A DNA stretch of 11,596 bases from a virus (Duplodnaviria > Heunggongvirae > Uroviricota > Caudoviricetes). Shown here piece by piece: positions 1 to 10,051 of the stretch (the stretch's first letter is position 1; each line of letters begins with the position of its first letter). The position numbers and the translations under genes are program-made. The stretch lies in the IMG/VR virus record IMGVR_UViG_2740892036_000005, positions 1 to 11,596 of that record. The stretch is one strand, 5' to 3'. The notes below the pieces were generated by a model that made no database searches, had not been told where the DNA came from, and was given only the letters and a program-made list of their open reading frames with translations.

Positions 1-340
1 GATTAGCTTCTTCCAATAATTAAAATTTTACCAAGCGTTTATGCCTTACAATATGTATTGTATCTCACCGTAAAACATATTTATATGGTTTTAAACCTAT
101 CTGTAAATCTTGACACCTTGGCAAGAACCTAATCCTACATTTTAATATCAATCTATATAATATAGCCAGTGTCATAATAATCGGGCTTGTCATAGTTAAG
201 TATTCTCCTCCGATATCCCAATGAGATAAGCAAGTCATCAGTGTTATAAATGAAAAGATCACATTTTTCAAAGAGTTATTATGATGAAATATTATTCAAA
301 ACGCAATGTAGCTGAAACGAGTCTGAGTTTAACATCCGCT
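1..340. other. AT-rich non-coding flank (module boundary)
   Basis: Base composition drops abruptly to strongly AT-rich compared with the GC-rich tail genes to the right. All three plus frames and all three minus frames have stop codons within the first ~65 nt, so no gene can enter from the left edge with meaningful coding length. The only ORFs are short, hydrophobic/AT-biased and lack a Shine-Dalgarno sequence. A TATAAT hexamer is at 156..161 and TTGACA at 110..115, but the spacing is not canonical. Confidence 0.5.
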
Positions 341-720: not shown

Positions 721-3700
721 TCAATGTTCGCTTCCTGTTAACTGCCGGACAAGTGCAACCAGTTCGCTTACCTGATTTTCCAGAGTGCTGATCCGGGTGT
801 CTGCTGTTGCCAGATTTTCACGTAGCGTTGTGTTTTCCTCTTCCAGCGCGGTAACGCGATCATCTGTTTCACGGGCGACCTGAACAAGTAAACCCGTCAC
901 GGCGGCGTAGTCAACATTAAGATAGCGCGTTTCTTCGCGTAGCTCGTTGCCGTCAACGGTCGGGCCTTGCAACTCTTCACCGTAATGGATGAATGAACCA
1001 ACGGCCTCCGGGATGGCCTCTTCAACTTCCTGGGCTATAACCCCGGCGCAATGTGCCCCATTCTCCTTGAGCGTGTACGTGTATCCATTAATTTTGCGGA
1101 TTGCGTCAGTCGCGTTATCGATAATCTCGATATTTTCTTTCAGTCTGCGGTCTGATGACTGATTCAGTGTGGTGCAGTTAACACTTCCGTTTACAGTAAG
1201 GTTTTGCCCGTCTGTTGTTTTTTGCGCATAAAACAGATACGCAGCAGACGTGCCAACCTCAAAAACGTTTTGTCGAGTACTGGAACCCCACACCCTGACA
1301 GAAAACGGTAGTTCTGCATTACCTGAGTTCTGTAAAACAAAACGATTACCAGTCCCTGATTGCTTTGTAAGGGTTAAATCAACGGTTGAGTTAACCTCAT
1401 TCCTGTTGATAGTGAGCGCCTGCGCTGTAGCCCCGTTAACAGCACCTGTTTTGAGTTGAACCGCGCCGTCATTACCATTTAACAGTATCTCAGCTCCGCT
1501 AAAGAAATTTTTTAGCGACAGCATCTTACTTACGCCGACTGATGAACCCAACGCCCACGCGAGAGAATTACCGGTGCTATCAAACCCACGTACAAAGCAA
1601 TCCATTTTGCTATAGTCTGACGTGCTTCCAAGGACATCAATCCGCCCTCCGCCAGATTTTACCGGACTAGATGTGGTTAACGACCTGACAGTTATATCCT
1701 GATTCCATCCGGAAACAACAACCTGACTCCACGCTGTCCAGTTTCCATTAACAACAAAGCGAACGTATATACGTTTTGTGTCGCTGTTAATCAGCGTTTG
1801 CATGTTCGCATAATCTGAATCCCTAACCTTACGAGTCGATTCAACACGGAGCAAAAAGTTACCTGTTACGCCGTCAGGCTTGTTGGTGATATTTGCACCA
1901 CCTGCAGAGGATGGACAAATATAGTATTTAACTGCCCCGGCATCTGACTTGATGATGGTCAGGTTGTTAAGATTAACCGTCTGGCCGTCAATGTTTTCCG
2001 GCTCGATGGCTCCTGCTATCCCGGCACTGAACGTAGCAACGGCTGAAAACGCTGTCGTACCTTTGAAAGCCAGTTGACCACCAATCGTTAATCCCTTGTC
2101 GAGTTTCGCTTGCGTGATCAATTTGCTGTTTTGTTTCTGATCAGGACTCTCACCAAAAGCCAGATCCCCATTAGTATCAATTCCAAGATACTTTGGGTTC
2201 ACGTTGTCTAACTTAAACCCAATGGACACATTTTCAGAAGAACCAGAACGCGTTAAAACTAACGGCGTGTGCTGTACTCCATAGATGCTTAGCGTAGTTG
2301 CCGATGAGCCAGTGTCGGTATTTGCAATCTCAATCGTTCTGCTTTTAATTTTATACGCTACTGTGAGATCACGGACTTCAACCCTCCCGTCGTGACGAAC
2401 AACAAGATCCCCTCCTGATGTCCCCCCTGCTGTCTTTGCCCTGATGCGAACTTCGCCAAGCGAATCAGTGTTAGGACCAGCATAGATTATGCCGCGCTCT
2501 GTGTTATCGCCAGTATAAAACCGCAAAGCGGTGACTCCACTGTCTGCCCGCAGGAAGACTGACGGTGTACCTTTTTTGATTGTCAAGTCACCGGTCATTG
2601 TATCGCCGGTTTTTTTTACCTGCGCATCGTTCGTTACGTTGCCAAGTCCAACATCCGATTTCGACGGCTTGTTTGCCGAGCCGTATAGCTCATTGATGCT
2701 AAAAGTCCCGTTGTTAAGCCGGGCATCGTTGCCGGCATAGATCTTAATCTTCGCGGTTGAGTAGTCGATATTGATCGCTGACCACGTATCGCCGCACCGC
2801 GAGAATATACCAGAACCGTGGCTATAAATGGTCGCCGTGCTTCCGGTCGGCTTATCACCGCGCCAGAAATGACCACCTTTGTCACGCAGAGCTTTTAAGA
2901 TCTCTACATCGCTCATCTTGCCGTTTGTTGATATCCCGCTACCGCCAAGACCGAAAGCGCCTGTAAGCATAGCATTAGAAAGACCCAAATCTGCTTTAGT
3001 CGGCTTGTTTAACTGGTCGTAAATCCTTACAACGGGGCTTTCAACATATCCAGAAGGCGCGGCGGTTTGCTTAACAAATCCGTCTGGAATGTATAATTCC
3101 GTGCGTGCCGTCTGCGCCAGTACCGCAACCTTTGCGCCGTTGATAAATGCACGCTGGAAGGCCCAAACCTCAATAAAGCCATCATCTTTAACCAGGCCGT
3201 AACGCATTTGCATGCTATTGATTAGCCCGGTTGGCCCTAAACGGCGTATACTCAGGTAACGAGATACATTATCAGCAGTAAGCGAAGAAGGCAGACCGCG
3301 CGCCGAGATCTCGATAAAGTCAATGTTTCCGTAAGGGGAGCCGTAGTCACCGCCGTTAGTAACCATTAGCGTTACATGGCAATTGTTGCTTCCGGGATCG
3401 GAAAGTTTCGCGATCTTTATGTAAAAAGACTCATTACCAGTAACAACGGGCCAATCGTATTGCGTCATCGGGCTGACGAGTCCCCCGACCTTGTCGAGAT
3501 ATTCTTTCGCCTTGTTCTCTGACGCTTTAGCGTTGGTTTCGCTGACCTTTGCTGCTGACTCACTATTTTTCGCGTTGGTTTCTGATTTTTTGGCTGCTGT
3601 CGCGGAATTTGCCGATGCAGTTTGTGAGTCTGCTGCCGCCTGTGCGCTGTTATCCGCATTCATCTCAGACGTTTTTGCGGCCTTCGCGGAATTTCCTGCC

Positions 3701-4497
3701 GCCGTTGCCGAGGAAGCTGCACTGCCGGCGCTCGAGGCTGCGCTCGTTTCTGATGATTTTGCCGCCACTTTTGAAGCCGACGCATCCCGGGCTGAGGTGG
3801 CAGCTTCTGACGCTTTCGTGGTCGCGGTGGATGCAGAAGTGGCCGCAGATTTTTGTGATGCTGCGGCATTCGTTTCTGACGTTTTCGCTGCACCGGCACT
3901 GGTGGCTGCCGCGCTTTTTGAAGACTCTGCAGCGGCAGCACTTTTTGATGCTTCAGTAGCCTTTGCTGATGCCGTTCCTGCGCTGGAAGACGCTGACTGA
4001 GCCGACGACGCGGCCTGTCCGGCTGACGTGCTGGCTGCGCGTGCTGAGTCTGCAGCATCAGTCGCATGGGTTGCCGCCTCACGGGCAGATGTGCCGGCAT
4101 CGCTGGCTGACTTCTTTGCGGCTGCCGTGTTCTGTGCCACTGCGGACGCGTTACGCGCCACCTCTTCCACCATCAGCTCAAAACGGCGCAGTGCCTCCGG
4201 ACGGGCATCATCCTCCGTCATGGCACCGAGAAAATCATTCAGCGTACCGGGTTGAGAATCTTCATACACGGTGATGGTCCCGGCATGTGACGGCGGGAAT
4301 CCTTCCACCAACAGAATAACGCTGTACTGACCGTACTCAACGTCCATGCTGTAACGCCCGGCTTCATCCGGATTTTCTGAGGCCAGCGTGTTCACCACCA
4401 CCGTGGTGCTGTTACGTTTTGCTTTCAGCTGGATTGTGCAGTTCTGTACCGGTTTTCCTGTGCCGTCTTTCAGTACACCTGAAATCTTTACTGCCAT
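721..4497 (-). CDS. stf: Side tail fibre protein (lambda Stf-like N-terminus, Ala/Ser-rich repeat shaft, distal fibre region, C-terminal S74 intramolecular chaperone)
   Basis: ORF 721..4503 (1260 aa). The likely true start is the ATG at 4495..4497, giving MAVKISGVLKDGTGKPVQNCTIQLKAK..., the N-terminus I recognise from lambda Stf and the StfR/StfQ family; the GTG at 4503 is an upstream in-frame alternative. Stop is TGA at 721..723. The protein contains tail-fibre motifs (KPSKSDVGLGNVTNDAQVKKTGDTMTGDLTI). It follows lom, as stf does in lambda. Confidence 0.88.
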   Translation of the reverse strand: MAVKISGVLKDGTGKPVQNCTIQLKAKRNSTTVVVNTLASENPDEAGRYSMDVEYGQYSVILLVEGFPPSHAGTITVYEDSQPGTLNDFLGAMTEDDARPEALRRFELMVEEVARNASAVAQNTAAAKKSASDAGTSAREAATHATDAADSARAASTSAGQAASSAQSASSSAGTASAKATEASKSAAAAESSKSAAATSAGAAKTSETNAAASQKSAATSASTATTKASEAATSARDASASKVAAKSSETSAASSAGSAASSATAAGNSAKAAKTSEMNADNSAQAAADSQTASANSATAAKKSETNAKNSESAAKVSETNAKASENKAKEYLDKVGGLVSPMTQYDWPVVTGNESFYIKIAKLSDPGSNNCHVTLMVTNGGDYGSPYGNIDFIEISARGLPSSLTADNVSRYLSIRRLGPTGLINSMQMRYGLVKDDGFIEVWAFQRAFINGAKVAVLAQTARTELYIPDGFVKQTAAPSGYVESPVVRIYDQLNKPTKADLGLSNAMLTGAFGLGGSGISTNGKMSDVEILKALRDKGGHFWRGDKPTGSTATIYSHGSGIFSRCGDTWSAINIDYSTAKIKIYAGNDARLNNGTFSINELYGSANKPSKSDVGLGNVTNDAQVKKTGDTMTGDLTIKKGTPSVFLRADSGVTALRFYTGDNTERGIIYAGPNTDSLGEVRIRAKTAGGTSGGDLVVRHDGRVEVRDLTVAYKIKSRTIEIANTDTGSSATTLSIYGVQHTPLVLTRSGSSENVSIGFKLDNVNPKYLGIDTNGDLAFGESPDQKQNSKLITQAKLDKGLTIGGQLAFKGTTAFSAVATFSAGIAGAIEPENIDGQTVNLNNLTIIKSDAGAVKYYICPSSAGGANITNKPDGVTGNFLLRVESTRKVRDSDYANMQTLINSDTKRIYVRFVVNGNWTAWSQVVVSGWNQDITVRSLTTSSPVKSGGGRIDVLGSTSDYSKMDCFVRGFDSTGNSLAWALGSSVGVSKMLSLKNFFSGAEILLNGNDGAVQLKTGAVNGATAQALTINRNEVNSTVDLTLTKQSGTGNRFVLQNSGNAELPFSVRVWGSSTRQNVFEVGTSAAYLFYAQKTTDGQNLTVNGSVNCTTLNQSSDRRLKENIEIIDNATDAIRKINGYTYTLKENGAHCAGVIAQEVEEAIPEAVGSFIHYGEELQGPTVDGNELREETRYLNVDYAAVTGLLVQVARETDDRVTALEEENTTLRENLATADTRISTLENQVSELVALVRQLTGSEH
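724..1152 (-). other. Peptidase S74-type C-terminal intramolecular chaperone domain of the tail fibre (predicted autocleavage at Ser|Asp, codons 1153..1155 | 1150..1152)
   Basis: The last 143 residues are ...NQSS|DRRLKENIEIIDNATDAIRKINGYTYTLKENGAHCAGVIAQEVEEAIPEAVGSF... followed by a heptad-like helical tail. The S-D-x-R-x-K-x-N-I and G-V-I-A-Q-E-V-E-E-x-I-P-E-x-V signatures are characteristic of the self-cleaving chaperone domain of endosialidases and of phage tail fibres/spikes such as T5 pb1 (Pfam Peptidase_S74 family). This is a motif-level call made from memory. Confidence 0.7.
3500..4160 (-). repeat. Degenerate ~42-nt (14-codon) tandem repeat array encoding the Ala/Ser/Thr/Lys-rich fibre shaft
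   Basis: Protein residues ~115-335 of Stf read as 14-aa periodic units (AKTSETNAAASQKS / AATSASTATTKASE / AATSARDASASKVA / AKSSETSAASSAGS ...). The plus-strand DNA shows recurring gtttctga(c/t)g(c/t)ttt(c/t)gc-type units. It also generates a spurious Ala/Phe-rich antisense ORF (3491..4000 plus). Confidence 0.65.
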
Positions 4498-4508
4498 ATT
4501 CACCCCAC

Positions 4509-4535
4509 AAAAAAGCCCGCCTGAACCGGCGGGCT
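4509..4535 (-). terminator. Intrinsic terminator downstream of lom (between lom and stf)
   Basis: On the minus strand: AGCCCGCC-GGUUCA-GGCGGGCU followed by UUUUUU. This is a perfect 8-bp GC-rich stem (plus 4514..4521 pairing with 4528..4535), a 6-nt loop, and a 6-U tract (plus A-run 4509..4514). It lies 26 nt downstream of the lom stop. Confidence 0.65.
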
Positions 4536-4561
4536 GTCATAACACTGTGTTACCTGGCTAA

Positions 4562-5161
4562 TCAGAACTTATAACCGACACCCATGATGAAACCGTCAGT
4601 GCGCCAGTCGCCACTGCCGGAGCCTTCATAAGCAATATCAATGGCCACGGATTCGGTCGGGTTAAACTGCACGCCAGCTCCCCACGCCAGAGACGTGTTG
4701 CTGTGGCGACCGTCATCACTTCCGGTCAGCACATCGTGCGTTTTCCCCTTGTTGTCAGTTACGCGGAGATAATCCCCGGAGAAAGTCGACACACGGCTGT
4801 AAGCCACACCCGCCATCGCATACGCGCTGAACCATTCATTCACGCGCACAGACGGCCCCGCCATCACGCTGAACCAGCGGTTACGCACGGAATCCTCATG
4901 CCAGCGGGTATCGCTGTAATGCGTTTTTTGCTCATCTTCAGCGTTGGCATAACTGAATGACGTAATCAGCCCCAGCGTGTCCGTAAACTCATAACGGTAT
5001 TTCACGTTAATCCCGTTCAGATCATCACTACCGGGAACGTTCGTCGAGGCATGAAGATACCCTGCGCTCAGTGTGGCCTGCTGCTCAGACGCCCATGCAG
5101 GCGCACCGGATACGGCCAGACAGATGGCTGCGGACAAAATGGCTGCACAAACTTTACGCAT
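4562..5161 (-). CDS. lom: Lom-like outer membrane protein (Ail/Lom/PagC/Rck family beta-barrel)
   Basis: 199 aa, ATG at 5159..5161 with a GAGAGG Shine-Dalgarno sequence upstream. It has an N-terminal signal peptide (MRKVCAAILSAAICLAVSGAPAWA|SEQ) and the family C-terminus ...DIAYEGSGSGDWRTDGFIMGVGYKF that I recognise from lambda Lom. Its position between J and stf is the same as in lambda. Confidence 0.9.
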   Translation of the reverse strand: MRKVCAAILSAAICLAVSGAPAWASEQQATLSAGYLHASTNVPGSDDLNGINVKYRYEFTDTLGLITSFSYANAEDEQKTHYSDTRWHEDSVRNRWFSVMAGPSVRVNEWFSAYAMAGVAYSRVSTFSGDYLRVTDNKGKTHDVLTGSDDGRHSNTSLAWGAGVQFNPTESVAIDIAYEGSGSGDWRTDGFIMGVGYKF

Positions 5162-5185
5162 AATTACCTCTCGCTTTTCTGCAAT

Positions 5186-5210
5186 AAAAAAGGCGCCAGA
5201 AATGGCGCCC
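5186..5210 (-). terminator. Intrinsic terminator-like hairpin between J and lom
   Basis: On the minus strand: GGCGCCA-UUUC-UGGCGCC followed by UUUUUU (stem plus 5192..5198 / 5203..5209; U-tract from plus A-run 5186..5191). It starts 19 nt downstream of the J stop and ends 24 nt upstream of the lom ATG. Confidence 0.55.
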
Positions 5211-5228
5211 GCATATGGGTTATAAAAT

Positions 5229-8200
5229 TCAGCTGATACTGATACCTGCTGTGGATTTCTTCATCACCACAACCAGCAAATCACTGATACTGGCTGTGGG
5301 ATACCAGTCATTTACCAGCCACGCTGATACCGAAAACTCCAGCGTCATGTGACCGCGACCAGCAGGCATATCAATAACACCTGTATAAACCAGCGTATTA
5401 TCCAGCGCGGTACGGTTATAAATTTCAGCACCGTTTTTCTTCACCATCAGGCGGCATGACGAATAAATATCGTTATTCTCCCGCTCATGTTTAGCGCCAC
5501 GAAACGCCACCGCGGGAATAACAATCTGCCGGTCAAACGGCTGATCGTCATAAACCCTGACGGTAATGGTCCCTGATGGCCACCGCTCCGGTGCACGGGA
5601 GTCCCGGGGGAAAGCTTTGCCCACTGTTTTAACGAGATCGCCTTCAATCTGGTTCGCAGACAGTTTTCCCAGAACCCGACAGTTCTCGTTAATCGTGACG
5701 TTGTTGAGCGTCCCGGAGTTCGCATTCACGTTACCGCTGATATCGGCATTTTTCGCCGTCAGCCGCCCGTCCGGTGTCAGGGAAAATACCGGAGGATTAC
5801 CGCCGCTGGTAATGGTGGGAGCCGTCAGGCGTTTCAGGAACACTTCGTTCATGAATATCTGATCGCCCTGACCAACAAACATCGGCTTTGTGTTGCCATT
5901 CGCAGGATTAATCATCGCAATCCTGTCTGCCGCCAGCAGCACCTGACTCTGCATGCCGTCAGGGGTGTTCTCAATACCGGCACCAATACCCGCGATATAA
6001 AGGCGTCCGTCCTGCATCTGCTGCAGCTTCACAGCCCACATGCTGTTCAGGTTATTATTTGTATCAACCTGAACCTTCTGTATCTGCTGAATTGCCGCAC
6101 TCTGGTCTTCCAGTTTCTTATTGACGGTCTGTGTGATTTCATTGCTGACATCCGTAATGGATGTCCTGATTTCAGCCAGGTCAGGCGCAAGCTGACCGTT
6201 ATCAATCTGCGTCCACAGCTCCTGAGCCAGATGGGTTTTCCCTATCTCGCCTTTGAAAAAATCCAGATAGCCGGATGCGTCATCACTCGGCTGACCAACA
6301 GCCTCCACGAATGCCGATTTGCCAACGGTGTTCACACTGCGAACGTAAAAATAATAATTATGGCCCGGCCTGATATTGATACTGGCGGCTATCCAGTACA
6401 GCGCCGTGCCAAGATAGCGTGCTGTGGTTTCAACCTGCCTGATATCCGCAATCCGCTTTTCCGAGAACCAGAACTCAAACTGTACCGTCGGATCATAAAC
6501 CGCAAGATGCGGCGTGGCGGTTATCTGAAAATAGCCCGGCGTCAGCTCAATCCGCGACGGCGCTGCCGGTGCGGCAATCCGGAACGATACCGACGCCGGA
6601 TCGCCCTGCTGTCCCCACGCATTTACCGCCCGGACTGTCAGCCTGTAGTTTCCCAGCGCCAGCTGCGTGAAGCGGTATGTGGTTTCCGTCGTCCTGGCTG
6701 TGCTGACCAGCCGCTCACTGCCGTCATCCGCTGTCACGGTCAGACGGAGCAGGAAGCTCACGCCCTTCACCACCTTCGGTGTGTCCCAGCGCGCCAGAAC
6801 CTGATATTCCCCGCTGTCTGCGGTGACTTCGGCGGTCAGGTGCTGCACCGCTGGCGGCGTGACACCATTCACCGTGCCGCTCTGGTCGCCGTCAAAGTGC
6901 GCCCCGTTATCCACGATGGCCTCTTTTTCCGGTACATGCTGCACGGCGGTGATGGCATACGTACCGTCATCGTTCTCACGGATACTCACACAGCGGAACA
7001 GGCGCTGGCGCAGCGTCGGCAGCTTCAGCCCCCACACGCTGTATTCGGCAACGCCGTCAGGAACACGGCTCACTTTCACCTTCACGCCGTCGGTGACGGA
7101 CTGGACCTCCACGCTGACCGGATTGCCATTTCCGTCAACCAGGCTTATCAGCGTGGTTCCGGAGGATGGCAGCATGATTTCACGGTCGAGCGTCAGTGTC
7201 CGGGTCTGGCTGTTTACCGCAAGCACGCGCCCGCCGACGCTGATACCCGCATAGTCATCATCGCAGATTTCAATGACATCGCCCGGTACATGGCGAAGCC
7301 CTTCTGCGCCCACGCTGAAGTCCACAGTCTGCGTTTCCAGCAGCTCCGTTTTAATCAGCCACAGCCCGGCGCGGTGTGCCTGCCCCCGGCTGGTACAGCC
7401 AAAGGCATCCATCTTCGTGACGTTACGACCGTAACGGGCAATGGCCTGCGTGTCCTCCACAAGCTCTGTTGCCGTCTCCCAGCCGTTGTCCGGGTCAATC
7501 CAGTTCACCTCAACGGCATTATGGCGGTCCTTCAGGGCGCTGAAGCTGTAGCGGAACGGCGCGTCATCATCCGGCATCACCACATTACTGCGGTTATAGG
7601 TCCACACCTTATCCGACGGTCGGTCCTGCACGAACGTCAGCGTCTGCCCGTTCCATACCGGCATACAGCGCATCGCCGAGCAGAAATCACTGAGCACATC
7701 CCACGCCTTTCGCTGTGTGGTCAGGTAGGCATTACAGGTGATGCGCGGCTCCGTGCCGCCAAAACCGTCCGGCACCGACTGGTCGCAATACTGGCCGATG
7801 ACATACAGCGCCCATTTGTCCACATCCGCCGCACCAAGACGTTTCCCCATGCCGTAGCGCGGGTGGGTCAGCATATCCCACAGACACCAGGCCGGGTTGT
7901 TGCTGTATGCCGGCTTAAACGTTCCGTCCCAGATACCGCTGTATTGCCGCGTCTGCGGGTTATAGTTCGACGGCACCTGCAGAATGCGCCCGCGAAGATG
8001 ATAATTACGGCTCACCTGCTGGCTGCCGAACTGCTCCGAGTCCACCTGCACGCCGACCAGTGCCGTGTTCGGGTAGCACTGTTTCACATCGATGATTTCG
8101 GTGTATGACGACCAGAGCGTTTTGTTCTGCAGCTGGTCTGTGGTGCTGTCCGGCGTCATCCTGCGCATCCGGATATTAAACGGGCGCGGCGGCAGGCTAC

Positions 8201-8708
8201 CCACCACCACCGAGGCCAGATACTGCGAGGTGGTTTTGCCCTTAATGGTGATGTCTTTTTCCGTCACCCAGCCACCATTACGCTGTATCTGAACCAGCAG
8301 GCGGACTTCCGACGGATTCCGGTCCCCCTTTGAGGTGGTTTCCACCAGTGCCTGTACACCGAAGGTAAAGCGCAGACGGTCGATGTTTGCCGACGTAATG
8401 GTGCGGGTGATCGGCGTGTCATATTTCACTTCCGTACCCAGCACCGTCTCGGAGCCGGAGGATTCAAATCCCTCCGGCGGTGACTGCTCCTGCTCACCTG
8501 CCCGGAACACCACCGTGACGCCGGATATATTGGTATTCCCCTCACTGTCCAGCACCGGCGTACTGTTCAGCAGCACGCTTTTTAATCCATCCACCGGACC
8601 TTCAATCGGCCCTTCGCTGATGGCATCAATCACACTCAGCAGCTGCGTGGATTTCAGGTTGTCCTTCGCTTCGCGCGGGGTATGCCCCTTACTGCTGCCT
8701 TTACCCAT
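5229..8708 (-). CDS. J: Tail tip / central tail fibre host-specificity protein J, with a divergent C-terminal receptor-binding region
   Basis: 1159 aa, ATG at 8706..8708 with GGAG upstream, stop TGA at 5229..5231. The N-terminus [54 protein letters not shown]... and roughly the first 800 residues read as lambda J. The last ~350 residues (about 5232..6290) are recognisably homologous but substantially diverged, and the protein is ~27 aa longer than lambda J (1132 aa). Confidence 0.95.
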
Positions 8709-9410: not shown

Positions 9411-10051
9411 TTGTCGGTATACCTCTCTCGTTTGCTCAGTTGTTCAGGAATATGGTGCAGCAGCTCGCCGTCACCACAGTAAATGGCGGCATGATTCGGC
9501 ACCGATGAACCAAAACAGCACAGCAGCACATCGCCCGGCTGCGCCGCTGACAACGGCACCTGATACAGCCCTGTGGCCTCCAGATTATCCAGATAGAGAT
9601 TCTGACCTGATTTCCACCAGTCATCATGTCGGTAAAAATCCGGCAAATCGATACCTGCAAGATGATAGGCATCGCGGAACAGCGTATAACAGTCCGTCAC
9701 CCCGTGCTCAAAGCGCCGCCCGGTGAGATGCGGCACACAGCGGAACTTGTGAATCGCCCCCCGGCAGACCAGCCACCACGGCAAATCACTCTGCACCTGC
9801 AGCCGCCGGTCAGCCTCACTCAGCCAGGGCAGACCACCGGGATGACTGTGGACCAGTGCCACAATCTCACCCTGCATCTCTGCCTGCAGCCAGTCCTCCG
9901 GAGCCATCCGGAAATAATCCTCCGGCTCACCGGAGATATTCACGCAGGGAAAATATCGTTCCCCCTCCGGCGCTCTCACCACGAAGCCGCACGACTCCGC
10001 TGGCGCACATCGCCGGGCGTGCGCCAGAATCGCTGATTCTGTCTCTGTCAT
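9308..10051 (-). CDS. K: Tail assembly protein K (MPN/JAMM domain plus NlpC/P60 domain)
   Basis: 247 aa, ATG at 10049..10051, 5 nt after the L stop. It contains a JAMM-type motif HSHPGGLPWLSEAD (H-x-H-x7-S-x2-D) and a C-terminal NlpC/P60-like region (VTDCYTLF ... NHAAIY). The sequence matches lambda gpK over the region the classical annotation covers; this ORF includes an N-terminal extension that completes the MPN fold. Confidence 0.88.
   Translation of the reverse strand: MTETESAILAHARRCAPAESCGFVVRAPEGERYFPCVNISGEPEDYFRMAPEDWLQAEMQGEIVALVHSHPGGLPWLSEADRRLQVQSDLPWWLVCRGAIHKFRCVPHLTGRRFEHGVTDCYTLFRDAYHLAGIDLPDFYRHDDWWKSGQNLYLDNLEATGLYQVPLSAAQPGDVLLCCFGSSVPNHAAIYCGDGELLHHIPEQLSKRERYTDKWQRRTHSLWRHQAWHASAFTGIYNDLAAASICV

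Follow-up and report, generated by a model that had tools for sequence, protein, structure and literature searches.

The gene lom is a textbook example of 'lysogenic conversion', and to our knowledge its promoter has never been defined. In the stretch of viral DNA analysed here (11,596 nt, hereafter the window), lom lies between the tail genes J and stf, with a hairpin and a U-run close to it on either side. This arrangement raises two questions. First, do the two hairpins belong to lom or to the operon in which lom resides? Second, from where could lom be transcribed, when only 24 nt separate the upstream hairpin and its U-run from the start codon? A full-text literature search on lom transcript 5′ ends and lom-flanking terminators returned no mapping data.

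The lom locus and its two hairpins

Read as its reverse complement, the window shows a lambdoid tail module: the minus strand, that of the late genes, encodes J, lom and stf. The features of the locus are as follows.

5229..8708, minus strand: J (tail tip / host specificity protein) CDS, from the ORF list, seven Pfam gpJ domains and the RefSeq annotation gpJ
5191..5210, minus strand: T1 hairpin, GGGCGCCA-UUUC-UGGCGCCU, from its predicted fold, covariation and the same hairpin in lom-less junctions
5183..5191, minus strand: T1 U-tract, TTTTTTATT, with the T run invariant in the alignment and the same tract meeting the stf Shine-Dalgarno (SD) sequence in empty sites
4510..5182, minus strand: lom cassette (indel), 673 nt, from the comparison of occupied and empty junctions
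5162..5182, minus strand: lom leader, 21 nt, GCAGAAAAGCGAGAGGTAATT, with the SD sequence GAGAGG at 5172-5167
4562..5161, minus strand: lom CDS, 199 aa, Ail/Lom outer-membrane beta-barrel, from Pfam PF06316
4536..4561, minus strand: lom trailer, 26 nt, with a small AU-rich hairpin GUAACA-CAG-UGUUAU in the intergenic fold
4509..4535, minus strand: T2 hairpin, AGCCCGCC-GGUUCA-GGCGGGCU (4535-4514), and U6 run (4514-4509), from its predicted fold
4495..4508, minus strand: stf ribosome-binding region, GTGGGGTGAAT, and ATG (4497-4495), directly adjoining the T2 U-run
721..4497, minus strand: stf (side tail fibre) CDS, from the ORF list, Pfam phage_tail_N and Peptidase_S74, and alignment of the lambda stf start

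The lom product, read from the ATG at 5161 to the stop codon at 4564-4562, matches PF06316 (Ail_Lom) over residues 1-199 of 199 (E = 1e-126, 420.8 bits, cut-off 23). The listed stf ORF begins with GTG at 4503, and the lambda-like start MAVKISG... corresponds to the ATG at 4497.

The T1 stem begins 18 nt beyond the J stop codon (TGA, 5231-5229), and positions 5210-5203 pair with 5198-5191 through six G-C pairs, one A-U pair and a basal G.U pair around a loop of 4 nt. Its tail is UUUUUUAUU (5191-5183), T5191 belonging to both the stem and the U-tract, and the U6 run is followed by the 24 nt (5185-5162) that lead to the lom ATG. The T2 stem begins 26 nt past the lom stop codon; positions 4535-4528 pair with 4521-4514 through seven G-C pairs and one A-U pair around a loop of 6 nt, and the tail UUUUUUGUG has a U-run that ends 11 nt ahead of the stf ATG. 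The minimum free energies are −14.8 kcal/mol for T1 (z = −2.9) and −18.2 kcal/mol for T2 (z = −3.2), both far beyond the −8 kcal/mol that the first-pass annotation had set as the limit for refuting its reading. That annotation had described stems of 7 and 8 bp, U6 runs and distances of 24 and 26 nt, figures that the coordinates and the fold all bear out; its term 'GC stem' is apt in that G-C pairs dominate, and slightly generous in that each stem contains one A-U pair.

T1 and T2 head the terminator list obtained by scanning the window, as had been claimed from the letters alone. Under a strict criterion, which asks for 7 or more pairs, 5 or more G-C pairs and 5 or more T in 6, three distinct sites remain in the window. 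The best are T1 and T2, and both of these fall in the non-coding DNA on the two sides of lom, which totals ~130 nt. First-order Markov shuffles gave a mean of 0.185 strict matches, with two or more in 3.5% of the shuffles. A T-run adjoining T1 or T2 on the opposite strand was looked for and not found, so that both are unidirectional and serve the late-gene strand.

The hairpins are conserved more as structures than as sequences. Of 34 distinct upstream classes, 24 have a hairpin with a T-run 27–30 nt ahead of the lom start, corresponding to ~214 of the 230 lom ORFs found, in a set that includes Lom alleles only 46–69% identical; several of the other ten classes stem from a misplaced ORF start. 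The T1 stem occurs in at least six sequence versions (GGCGCC, GGCACC/GGTGCC, GGCGTC/GACGCC, GGCACCU/AGGUGCC and AGCGCUC/GGGCGCU, with CGUCCG/CGGGCG in lambda). Over 32 distinct T1 sequences, 94.5% of the cells are paired, as against only 37–60% in slid controls, and both sides have changed in four of the eight pairs; the cells with changes on both sides number 24, relative to a shuffle mean of 6.6, and none of 500 shuffles did as well. T2 is present in most of the lom loci fetched, being missing from 12 of 47 downstream classes (~31 loci). Its stem variants are mainly C-to-U changes on the sense strand that keep G.U pairs, together with one compensatory change of a C-G to an A-U pair, and the G.U-keeping variants point to selection on the sense RNA. 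The U6-7 run is nearly invariant across alleles, beside very different stems.

Could such hairpins be chance palindromes, or recombination 'linkers' at mosaic joints with no function in RNA? The lom-stf spacer and the 5′ end of stf are 90–100% identical where Lom is only ~49% identical, as mosaic boundary blocks would be, and a loose terminator scan of the whole window found no enrichment (13 sites, 11.5 expected). Against this, compensatory changes hold the T1 stem in at least six sequences, the corresponding position holds unrelated stems in Gifsy-1, PhiR12_2_star, lambda and Citrobacter, and both T1 and T2 were observed where the strict scan expects ~0.19 matches. The covariation already contradicts an absence of RNA function, and we regard this reading as highly improbable. 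Both T1 and T2 combine a stable G+C-rich stem-loop within the usual range for terminators, with a stem of about 5–14 bp and a loop of 3–8 nt, a 3′ U-tract and conservation at the level of structure; judged by predicted RNA structure and conservation, they are genuine, conserved Rho-independent terminators of the late-gene strand.

A different role in RNA is conceivable, in which the hairpins act mainly as stability, processing and translation elements of a long late mRNA, with the stems as barriers to 3′ exonucleases for the J and lom segments and the U-tract 5′ of each SD sequence as an S1-binding translational enhancer. Each hairpin and U-run does stand directly 5′ of the next SD sequence (those of lom, stf and the Gifsy-1 cargo gene described below), a hairpin of this kind is also found after the major capsid gene (positions 9579-9596 of locus L002), the Citrobacter locus L090 keeps a pre-stf hairpin (GCCCGC-UUCCCG-GCGGGC) that has no U-run, and the G.U-preserving substitutions likewise fit selection at the RNA level. 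An almost invariant U6-7 run beside very different stems is a hallmark of termination rather than of a decay barrier, and the geometry and energy fit canonical strong terminators. As the main role of the hairpins we find this improbable, although it is compatible with the termination-based explanation favoured below.

lom as an optional cassette between J and stf

A junction between J and stf without lom was found in 43 E. coli genomes and 65 IMG/VR viral contigs. In the 43 genomes, the J stop codon is followed by 58 nt, including a T1-type hairpin, and then by the stf ATG. The 65 contigs read ...GGGCGCCAGAAATGGCGCC TTTTTTATT|TGTGGAGTGAATATGGCAG, with the left part identical to T1 of the occupied site and the right part identical to the sequence past T2. 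In these lom-less phages the T1 hairpin and its U-tract run straight into the stf SD sequence. The presence of the same hairpin and U-tract in lom-less junctions shows that T1 is the resident terminator between J and stf. The first-pass annotation had treated T1 and T2 as a bracket around lom; this cannot be maintained for T1, which has the same sequence in phages without lom, as only T2 lies within the indel.

The left edge of the indel is the T1 U-tract. The edges of the occupied and empty junctions share only a TT microhomology, which leaves an uncertainty of ~2 nt in the length of 673 nt. The indel holds the leader, lom, the trailer and T2 with all of its stem and the greater part of its U-run, and no promoter was detected in it. 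Almost all loci of the E. coli type keep the leader; in lambda and in loci L090 and L093 it diverges together with the lom allele. As far as the junctions tell, lom is a promoterless cassette set precisely at the joint where the T1 U-tract meets the stf SD sequence, and T2 re-creates the order of hairpin, U-run and SD sequence ahead of stf. With only the TT shared at the junctions, and with a T2-like hairpin beside stf in Gifsy-1 as well, the indel could have arisen either by insertion of the cassette or by its deletion from the sites that are now empty. What is new here is anatomical: T1 is resident between J and stf, and the cassette comprises a leader with an SD sequence, an ORF, a trailer and T2. 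This provides a base-pair-precise example of how a cargo gene can be slotted into a late operon with the succession of terminator and SD sequence ahead of the next gene left undisturbed.

Is lom then a moron, as had been proposed? It is present in some and absent from other collinear genomes, and it has a factor-independent terminator of its own downstream, T2, within the indel and 26 nt after the lom stop codon. A promoter of its own was not detected: no more than 21 nt of the cassette precede the ATG, and the sigma-70 matrix described below is blank within 500 nt. Atypical composition was also looked for and not found, the G+C content of lom (~55%, range 52–58%) showing no difference from that of its neighbours (47–60%). 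The designation therefore holds for an optional insert with its own terminator, and does not extend to a promoter of its own or to atypical G+C. A terminator-flanked lom is otherwise ordinary, being common to lambda and thousands of E. coli prophages.

Transcription of lom

The earlier statement that there is no room for a promoter between T1 and the lom start is upheld, given that only 24 nt are available. A sigma-70 matrix was calibrated on lambda, where it placed pR′ at rank 2, pL at 4, pR at 6 and pRM at 21 of 484,710 positions, and the region upstream of bor at 33. On the sense strand within 500 nt upstream of lom, the best score ranks only 134 of 115,650 in the window and only 198 in lambda, and the promoter scan of the window returned no minus-strand promoter-like site near lom. 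A sigma-70 promoter in the 3′ end of J or over T1 was rejected, the matrix scans of the window and lambda being at background there. The first-pass suggestion that a promoter may be embedded in the 3′ end of J is without sigma-70 support, with a rank of 134 of 115,650 set against ranks 2 to 21 of 484,710 for the real promoters of lambda. By its nature, a sigma-70 consensus matrix is blind to activator-dependent and alternative-sigma promoters. Several candidates picked by eye were dismissed, all of them weak and without conservation in lambda or Citrobacter. They comprise the TATAAC that follows the J stop codon (5224-5219), the TATTGC of the T1 tail, a GGTTTA-N5-GTGTTA resembling a PhoP box at ~5391-5375, and −10 motifs of the sigma-E and sigma-S types. 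An antisense promoter inside lom has a strong candidate in lambda (19072..19044, the third-best score of the genome) with no counterpart in the window.

In the RefSeq annotation of EcPF20, one strand carries, in order, a gene for an antiterminator Q family protein, the lysis genes, terminase, head and tail genes, J, lom and stf. The Q-family gene thus lies upstream of the lysis, head and tail genes on the same strand, as in a late operon. Polymerase modified by lambda Q bypasses terminators within the late operon. With a Q-family gene upstream on the same strand, read-through of both T1 and T2 is expected in lytic growth. We infer that lom is most likely transcribed by Q-antiterminated late polymerase, and is at most leaky in the lysogen. 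Under such a mechanism, lom would be reachable only by polymerases that get past T1. In lytic growth, the Q-modified, terminator-resistant polymerases of the late operon would pass T1 and then T2, and continue into stf. In the repressed prophage, T1 would block Q-independent transcription coming from J, so that Lom synthesis would be low and would derive from terminator leak or from a weak non-consensus start, and T2 would halt any leaked transcripts ahead of stf-tfa.

Some published observations bear on transcription in the lysogen. According to later papers that cite the original studies, lambda lom is expressed in lysogens (Reeve & Shaw 1979; Barondess & Beckwith 1990, via PMC1151598 and PMC7067206). 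Separately, lomW of O157 Sakai rises at entry into stationary phase (PMC2241611). Together they imply some Q-independent, regulated transcription, which the Q-gated mechanism covers only as leak or as a weak start.

These same observations favour an alternative, that lom has a non-consensus or activator-dependent promoter of its own overlapping T1 or the last codons of J. The −10 element could then be the T-rich terminator tail itself, or transcription could depend on an activator or an alternative sigma factor; lom would be a true lysogenic-conversion moron, and T1 a mere insulator. A TATTAT is indeed present in the tail of the T1 counterpart of lambda (18939-18944), 20 nt before the ATG, and the TATAAC past the J stop codon of the window recurs in many alleles. 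However, the lambda TATTAT is TATTGC in the window family and lacks the critical last T, which is also lacking in TATAAC, and the latter has no −35 partner and is missing in lambda and in the Citrobacter locus L090. Neither TATTGC nor TATAAC scores with the calibrated matrix. With only 21 nt of cassette 5′ of the ATG, such a promoter must come from the variable J/T1 side, and a start just upstream of T1 would hit the terminator at once. We therefore consider a dedicated promoter possible and rather unlikely. The preferred explanation, which unites genuine terminators at T1 and T2, a promoterless lom cassette behind a resident T1 and Q-gated expression, seems to us reasonably probable. Finding the mobile lom unit to be promoterless, and placed downstream of a strong terminator whose structure is conserved, turns what was a vague gap into a simple test.

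Comparison with known systems

The order J-lom-stf (orf-401) is the same in lambda (NC_001416, 18,904-19,649), with spacers of 61 and 64 nt compared with 67 and 64 nt in the window. Identity between the two is 94% over T2 and the entire lom-stf spacer and 100% over the lom trailer, whereas the Lom proteins are only 48.6% identical. A hairpin and U-run are found at the same distance upstream, with 29 nt from the stem end to the lom ATG. The stem of this T1 counterpart is different and weaker (CGUCCG-GGAA-CGGGCG, about −8 to −9 kcal/mol; centroid −8.1, z = −0.5), compared with −14.8 kcal/mol for T1 of the window, and its U-run, UUUUAUUAU, is shorter and holds TATTAT where the window has TATTGC. 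With a weaker hairpin and a TATTAT in its tail, lambda may behave unlike this prophage.

In having a Q-family gene upstream on the same strand, the locus resembles lambdoid late-operon antitermination (pR′-qut-tR′). Unlike in that paradigm, the distance from the expected Q loading site down to T1 and T2 is ~25 kb, and no report of their bypass by Q-modified polymerase was found in the literature consulted. Among known RNA families, an Rfam scan of the whole window at gathering thresholds returned nothing, and a permissive scan of 4350-5450 gave only sub-threshold matches, none near the gathering score of its family. The small RNA 24B_1 of phage Phi24B ('lom-vb_24B_43 region'), reported by its authors to be absent from lambda, was rejected as a relative of T2, since its position is another spacer, of 428 nt, in a phage of another type.

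The same architecture is found in the J-stf slot of Gifsy-1, which reads J, hairpin with a T-rich tail, SD sequence, cargo ORF, hairpin GCCUGCC/GGCGGGC with U6, SD sequence and stf. The cargo, STM2589.1n, is an ORF of 80 aa with a hydrophobic, signal-peptide-like N-terminus, and has no relationship to Lom. From the J stop codon to the upstream hairpin the distance is 83 nt, and the tail of this hairpin, UCUUUCGUUU, is weaker. STMMW_26411 of Gifsy-1 was considered as another candidate J-stf cargo, one with expression data, and was set aside because the published text gives no position for the gene. The slot of PhiR12_2_star contains no cargo, and in both phages a hairpin with T6-7 stands directly 5′ of the stf SD sequence. 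It is tempting to speculate that the U-tract/SD junction between J and stf is a docking site for promoterless cargo, made up of SD sequence, gene and terminator, that is gated by Q antitermination. Lom would then be mainly an outer-membrane protein of the late lytic phase in this E. coli prophage family rather than a lysogenic-conversion factor, and the strength of T1, which varies by allele (weak in lambda, strong here), would set the level of Lom in the lysogen. We put this forward as a tentative idea, with the odds rather against it; were it true, Lom might act, for example, on the envelope or debris of the lysing cell.

A further comparison is with the morons of HK97 and HK022, which, as summarized in a review (Juhala et al. 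2000, reviewed in PMC3594210), have their own promoter and usually an atypical G+C content. Like these, the lom cassette is extra DNA between two late-operon genes that is missing in close relatives, encodes a protein that affects the host rather than a virion protein, and has a factor-independent terminator at its end. Unlike these, it has no detectable promoter, its G+C content of ~55% matches that of its neighbours, and the resident terminator stands before the cassette, not after it.

The lom locus and its two hairpins

The window is 100% identical to positions 4,074,489-4,086,084 of the E. coli EcPF20 chromosome (NZ_CP071441.1); the strain was isolated from urine. Read as its reverse complement, the window is the tail end of a lambdoid prophage, whose integration site adjoins tRNA-Thr and proA. 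A Q-family antiterminator gene lies 5′ of the lysis, head and tail genes of this prophage, on the same strand. The features concerned are:

M, L, K and I, minus strand, tail genes in the window
5229-8708, minus strand, J
5210-5203 paired with 5198-5191, minus strand, T1 hairpin between J and lom, GGGCGCCA-UUUC-UGGCGCCU, tail UUUUUUAUU
5182-4510, minus strand, lom cassette: 21-nt leader with SD, lom, 26-nt trailer and T2
4562-5161, minus strand, lom (Pfam Ail_Lom, E = 1e-126)
4535-4514, with the U6 run to 4509, minus strand, T2 hairpin between lom and stf, AGCCCGCC-GGUUCA-GGCGGGCU
721-4497, minus strand, stf, side tail fibre, 1260 aa

The stem of T1 begins 18 nt past the J stop, and its U6 run is separated from the lom ATG by exactly 24 nt. 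T2 begins 26 nt past the lom stop, and 11 nt separate the end of its U-run from the stf ATG. Every number that the first-pass annotation had given for the two hairpins (stems, U6, 24 nt, 26 nt) was confirmed, and the folding energies of -14.8 kcal/mol for T1 and -18.2 kcal/mol for T2 (z about -3 for each) lie far beyond the -8 kcal/mol that it regarded as too weak. T1 and T2 are the top two entries in a consensus terminator scan of the window. Since that scan is loose and as a whole was not enriched (13 sites found, 11.5 expected), a strict filter was applied, requiring 7 or more pairs, 5 or more of them G-C, and no fewer than 5 T in 6. T1 and T2 came out best among the three distinct sites that it returned, against an average of 0.185 matches in first-order Markov shuffles. 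The opposite strand has no T-run at either hairpin, and both are thus unidirectional.

The sole other intergenic terminator-like hairpin on the late-gene strand passing the strict filter lies directly 3′ of the major capsid gene of the same prophage (9579-9596, plus strand, of the fetched prophage locus L002; AUGGCCC-UUCG-GGGCCAU with the T-rich tail UUUCUCUC). The stf open reading frame (721-4503, minus strand) is unbroken over 1260 aa and has a C-terminal Peptidase_S74 intramolecular chaperone domain, whereas RefSeq splits this stretch into a truncated pseudogene and a 'tail fiber domain-containing protein'. At the prophage end, the anti-phage gene avs2 (AVAST type 2; L002 26597-31051) starts just past window position 1 on the late-gene strand, and two high-scoring minus-strand promoter-like sites within window 1-300, at 271..243 and 51..25, could serve it.

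Conservation of the hairpins

Three Lom queries, which share 46-100% identity with the protein of the window, served to collect about 240 lom loci from genomes in IMG/VR and GTDB. Of 34 distinct upstream classes, 24 carry a T1-type hairpin and T-run 27-30 nt 5′ of the start of lom, corresponding to about 214 of the 230 ORFs found for lom; several classes lacking a match owe this to a misplaced ORF start. The T1 stem occurs as GGCGCC, GGCACC/GGTGCC, GGCGTC/GACGCC, GGCACCU/AGGUGCC, AGCGCUC/GGGCGCU (Citrobacter) and CGUCCG/CGGGCG (lambda). When 32 distinct sequences are aligned, pairing holds in 94.5% of cells, and both sides have changed in four of the eight pairs. Doubly changed cells number 24, with 6.6 expected, a count equalled in 0 of 500 shuffles, and slid controls pair in only 37-60%. 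This covariation excludes chance, or a pure 'recombination linker' role, as the reason why the hairpins are conserved.

T2 is missing from 12 of 47 downstream classes (about 31 loci), is present in all other fetched lom loci and shows little variation. Most changes in its stem are sense-strand C-to-U substitutions; these preserve G.U pairing in the sense RNA, but the antisense RNA would lose the pairs concerned. At one pair the change is compensatory, from C-G to A-U. The substitution patterns of T1 and T2 show that selection acts on an RNA hairpin with a U-run, transcribed from the late-gene strand, the defining trait of an intrinsic terminator. Rfam holds no family for T1 or T2. It is quite improbable, albeit compatible with termination, that in the long late mRNA the hairpins also protect against decay and the U-runs enhance translation.

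The T1 loop (5199-5202, minus strand) is UUUC in the window and in only a small minority of the T1 sequences collected (7 of about 200 occurrences), and GAAA in most others (e.g. loci L006 and L010). Because the T1 stem is a perfect palindrome, this swap is equivalent to inverting the entire hairpin, as template switching at a quasipalindrome would be expected to do, and it shows the loop sequence to be unconstrained. In about 25 loci (L065, L066, L088, L141-L144) the sequence diverges straight after the lom stop codon, and T2 is replaced by a longer spacer that holds a hairpin, ACGCAGGUUCA...UGAACUGCGU, but lacks a U-run; the lom genes there may lack an efficient downstream terminator. Citrobacter meridianamericanus (L090 2100-2144) keeps the pre-stf hairpin GCCCGC-UUCCCG-GCGGGC, followed by AUCUUAU instead of a U-run. 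This hairpin may be non-terminating, which hints at a second role.

Empty sites and the extent of the cassette

A chimeric query of the last 200 nt of J and the first 200 nt of stf matched 43 E. coli genomes with a gap of 58 nt between its halves, as against 731 nt. The empty spacer, TGA-ATGTTCAGAAACCAGACCGG-GUGCCA-GAAA-UGGCAC-C-UUUUUUAUU-UGUGGAACGAAUAUG(stf), contains a single T1-type hairpin, a further compensatory allele, and the T1 tail, fused to the stf ribosome-binding region. An exact-pattern scan of viral contigs gave 65 further empty sites, most with the same T1 context as occupied ones, ...ACGGGCGCCAGAAATGGCGCC TTTTTTATT joined to TGTGGAGTGAATATGGCAG. Occupied junctions have ...TTTTTTATT joined to GCAGAAAAGCGAGAGGTAATTATG on the left and ...GGCGGGCTTTTT joined to TGTGG(A/G)GTGAATATG on the right. 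The comparison places the indel at window 5182-4510 (673 nt), with edges uncertain by about 2 nt owing to a TT microhomology.

By this comparison of sequences, T1 is the resident terminator of the J-stf spacer and not an element of lom itself. The first-pass annotation had described lom as a moron bracketed by two terminators of its own strand; both hairpins are real and T2 lies within the indel, but T1 belongs to the spacer, as the 43 and 65 empty sites indicate. As the cassette ends in T2, the order of hairpin, U-run and SD of stf is unchanged with or without lom. lom may have been inserted into empty sites or deleted from occupied ones. The base-pair-precise limits and the residence of T1 are useful refinements that would not surprise a phage specialist, and they open the long-standing question of how lysogens express lom to direct experiment.

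Expression of lom and comparison with known systems

A sigma-70 matrix (two hexamers, spacer, extended -10) was calibrated on the whole lambda genome, where pR′, pL, pR and pRM rank 2nd, 4th, 6th and 21st of 484,710 positions, and the region 5′ of bor, the other lambda gene expressed in lysogens, ranks 33rd. Sense-strand sites in the 500 nt before lom stay at background level: the highest-scoring one is 198th in lambda and, in the window, 134th of 115,650. A separate promoter scan listed nothing on the minus strand close to lom. Phages with shared lom flanks have J 3′ ends that are only about 60% identical, so a promoter embedded there would not travel with lom; the promoter that the first-pass annotation had suggested in this part of J gains no support from the best rank of 134th. 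The cassette itself contains no promoter. In lambda, the tail of the weak T1 counterpart includes a hexamer, TATTAT, 20 nt 5′ of the ATG; the window family has TATTGC at that position, without the essential last T.

Three plus-strand sigma-70-like sites, at 3071-3097, 6028-6058 and 6331-6358 (ranks 1, 4 and 5, three of the window's best five), are antisense to stf and J. Lambda carries the third-best sigma-70 score of its whole genome at 19072..19044 (minus strand of L244, the lambda locus; TTGAAA-17-TACCAT), antisense in the 5′ part of lom and directed towards J, with no counterpart in the window. Antisense RNAs inside tail genes are known in other prophages, e.g. STnc6030 of BTP1.

What the analysis shows is a pair of conserved terminator structures, with a cassette that lacks a promoter behind the first of them, and, upstream, a Q gene. 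Late transcription in lambda is carried out by a Q-modified, terminator-resistant polymerase. Following established lambda biology, such a polymerase would pass T1, transcribe lom, pass T2 and continue into stf, while in the repressed prophage unmodified polymerase would halt at T1 and T2, so that lom would receive only leak-through or weak non-consensus initiation and stf nothing. We consider this model of late Q-dependent lom transcription, as a whole, to be probably correct. Its main rival, an unrecognised activator-dependent or alternative-sigma promoter overlapping T1 or the J end, is rather unlikely. Lambda lom is expressed in lysogens according to the passages of PMC1151598 and PMC7067206 that cite Reeve & Shaw 1979 and Barondess & Beckwith 1990; no transcript-end mapping for lom was found in the literature searched. 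Under Q-dependent transcription, lysogenic Lom is predicted to be lower in the window prophage than in lambda, because T1 is much stronger in the former (-14.8 kcal/mol, U6) than in the latter (about -8 to -9 kcal/mol, U4AUU).

The J-lom-stf region of lambda is homologous to that of the window and appears to work alike, and the hairpins are not new, being already present in the long available lambda sequence. T2 and the lom-stf spacer are 94% identical between the two, whereas Lom is only 48.6% identical. Lom proteins 46-69% identical (window 4562-5161 against lambda L244 18965-19585, the divergent allele L093 and Citrobacter L090) lie between near-identical flanks, the lom-stf spacer around divergent alleles being 94-100% identical. 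This suggests allele replacement by flank recombination, with diversifying selection on the surface protein. Sequence matching the lom flanks occurs in 4,770 of 5,426 complete E. coli genomes. In the lom-less Gifsy-1 the same slot holds an ORF of 80 aa that is unrelated, has a hydrophobic N-terminus resembling a signal peptide and is flanked like lom by hairpin and T elements, and the lom-less PhiR12_2_star has no cargo but an unrelated 12-bp hairpin and U7 directly 5′ of the stf SD; the slot architecture would thereby generalise to lom-less phages. A classical moron has its own promoter and terminator, atypical G+C and is absent from relatives (PMC3594210). The moron label fits the lom cassette in its presence or absence among relatives and its own terminator, but not in promoter or base composition, and the most apt description is that of a cargo cassette of the late operon that lacks a promoter, a variation on the moron concept.
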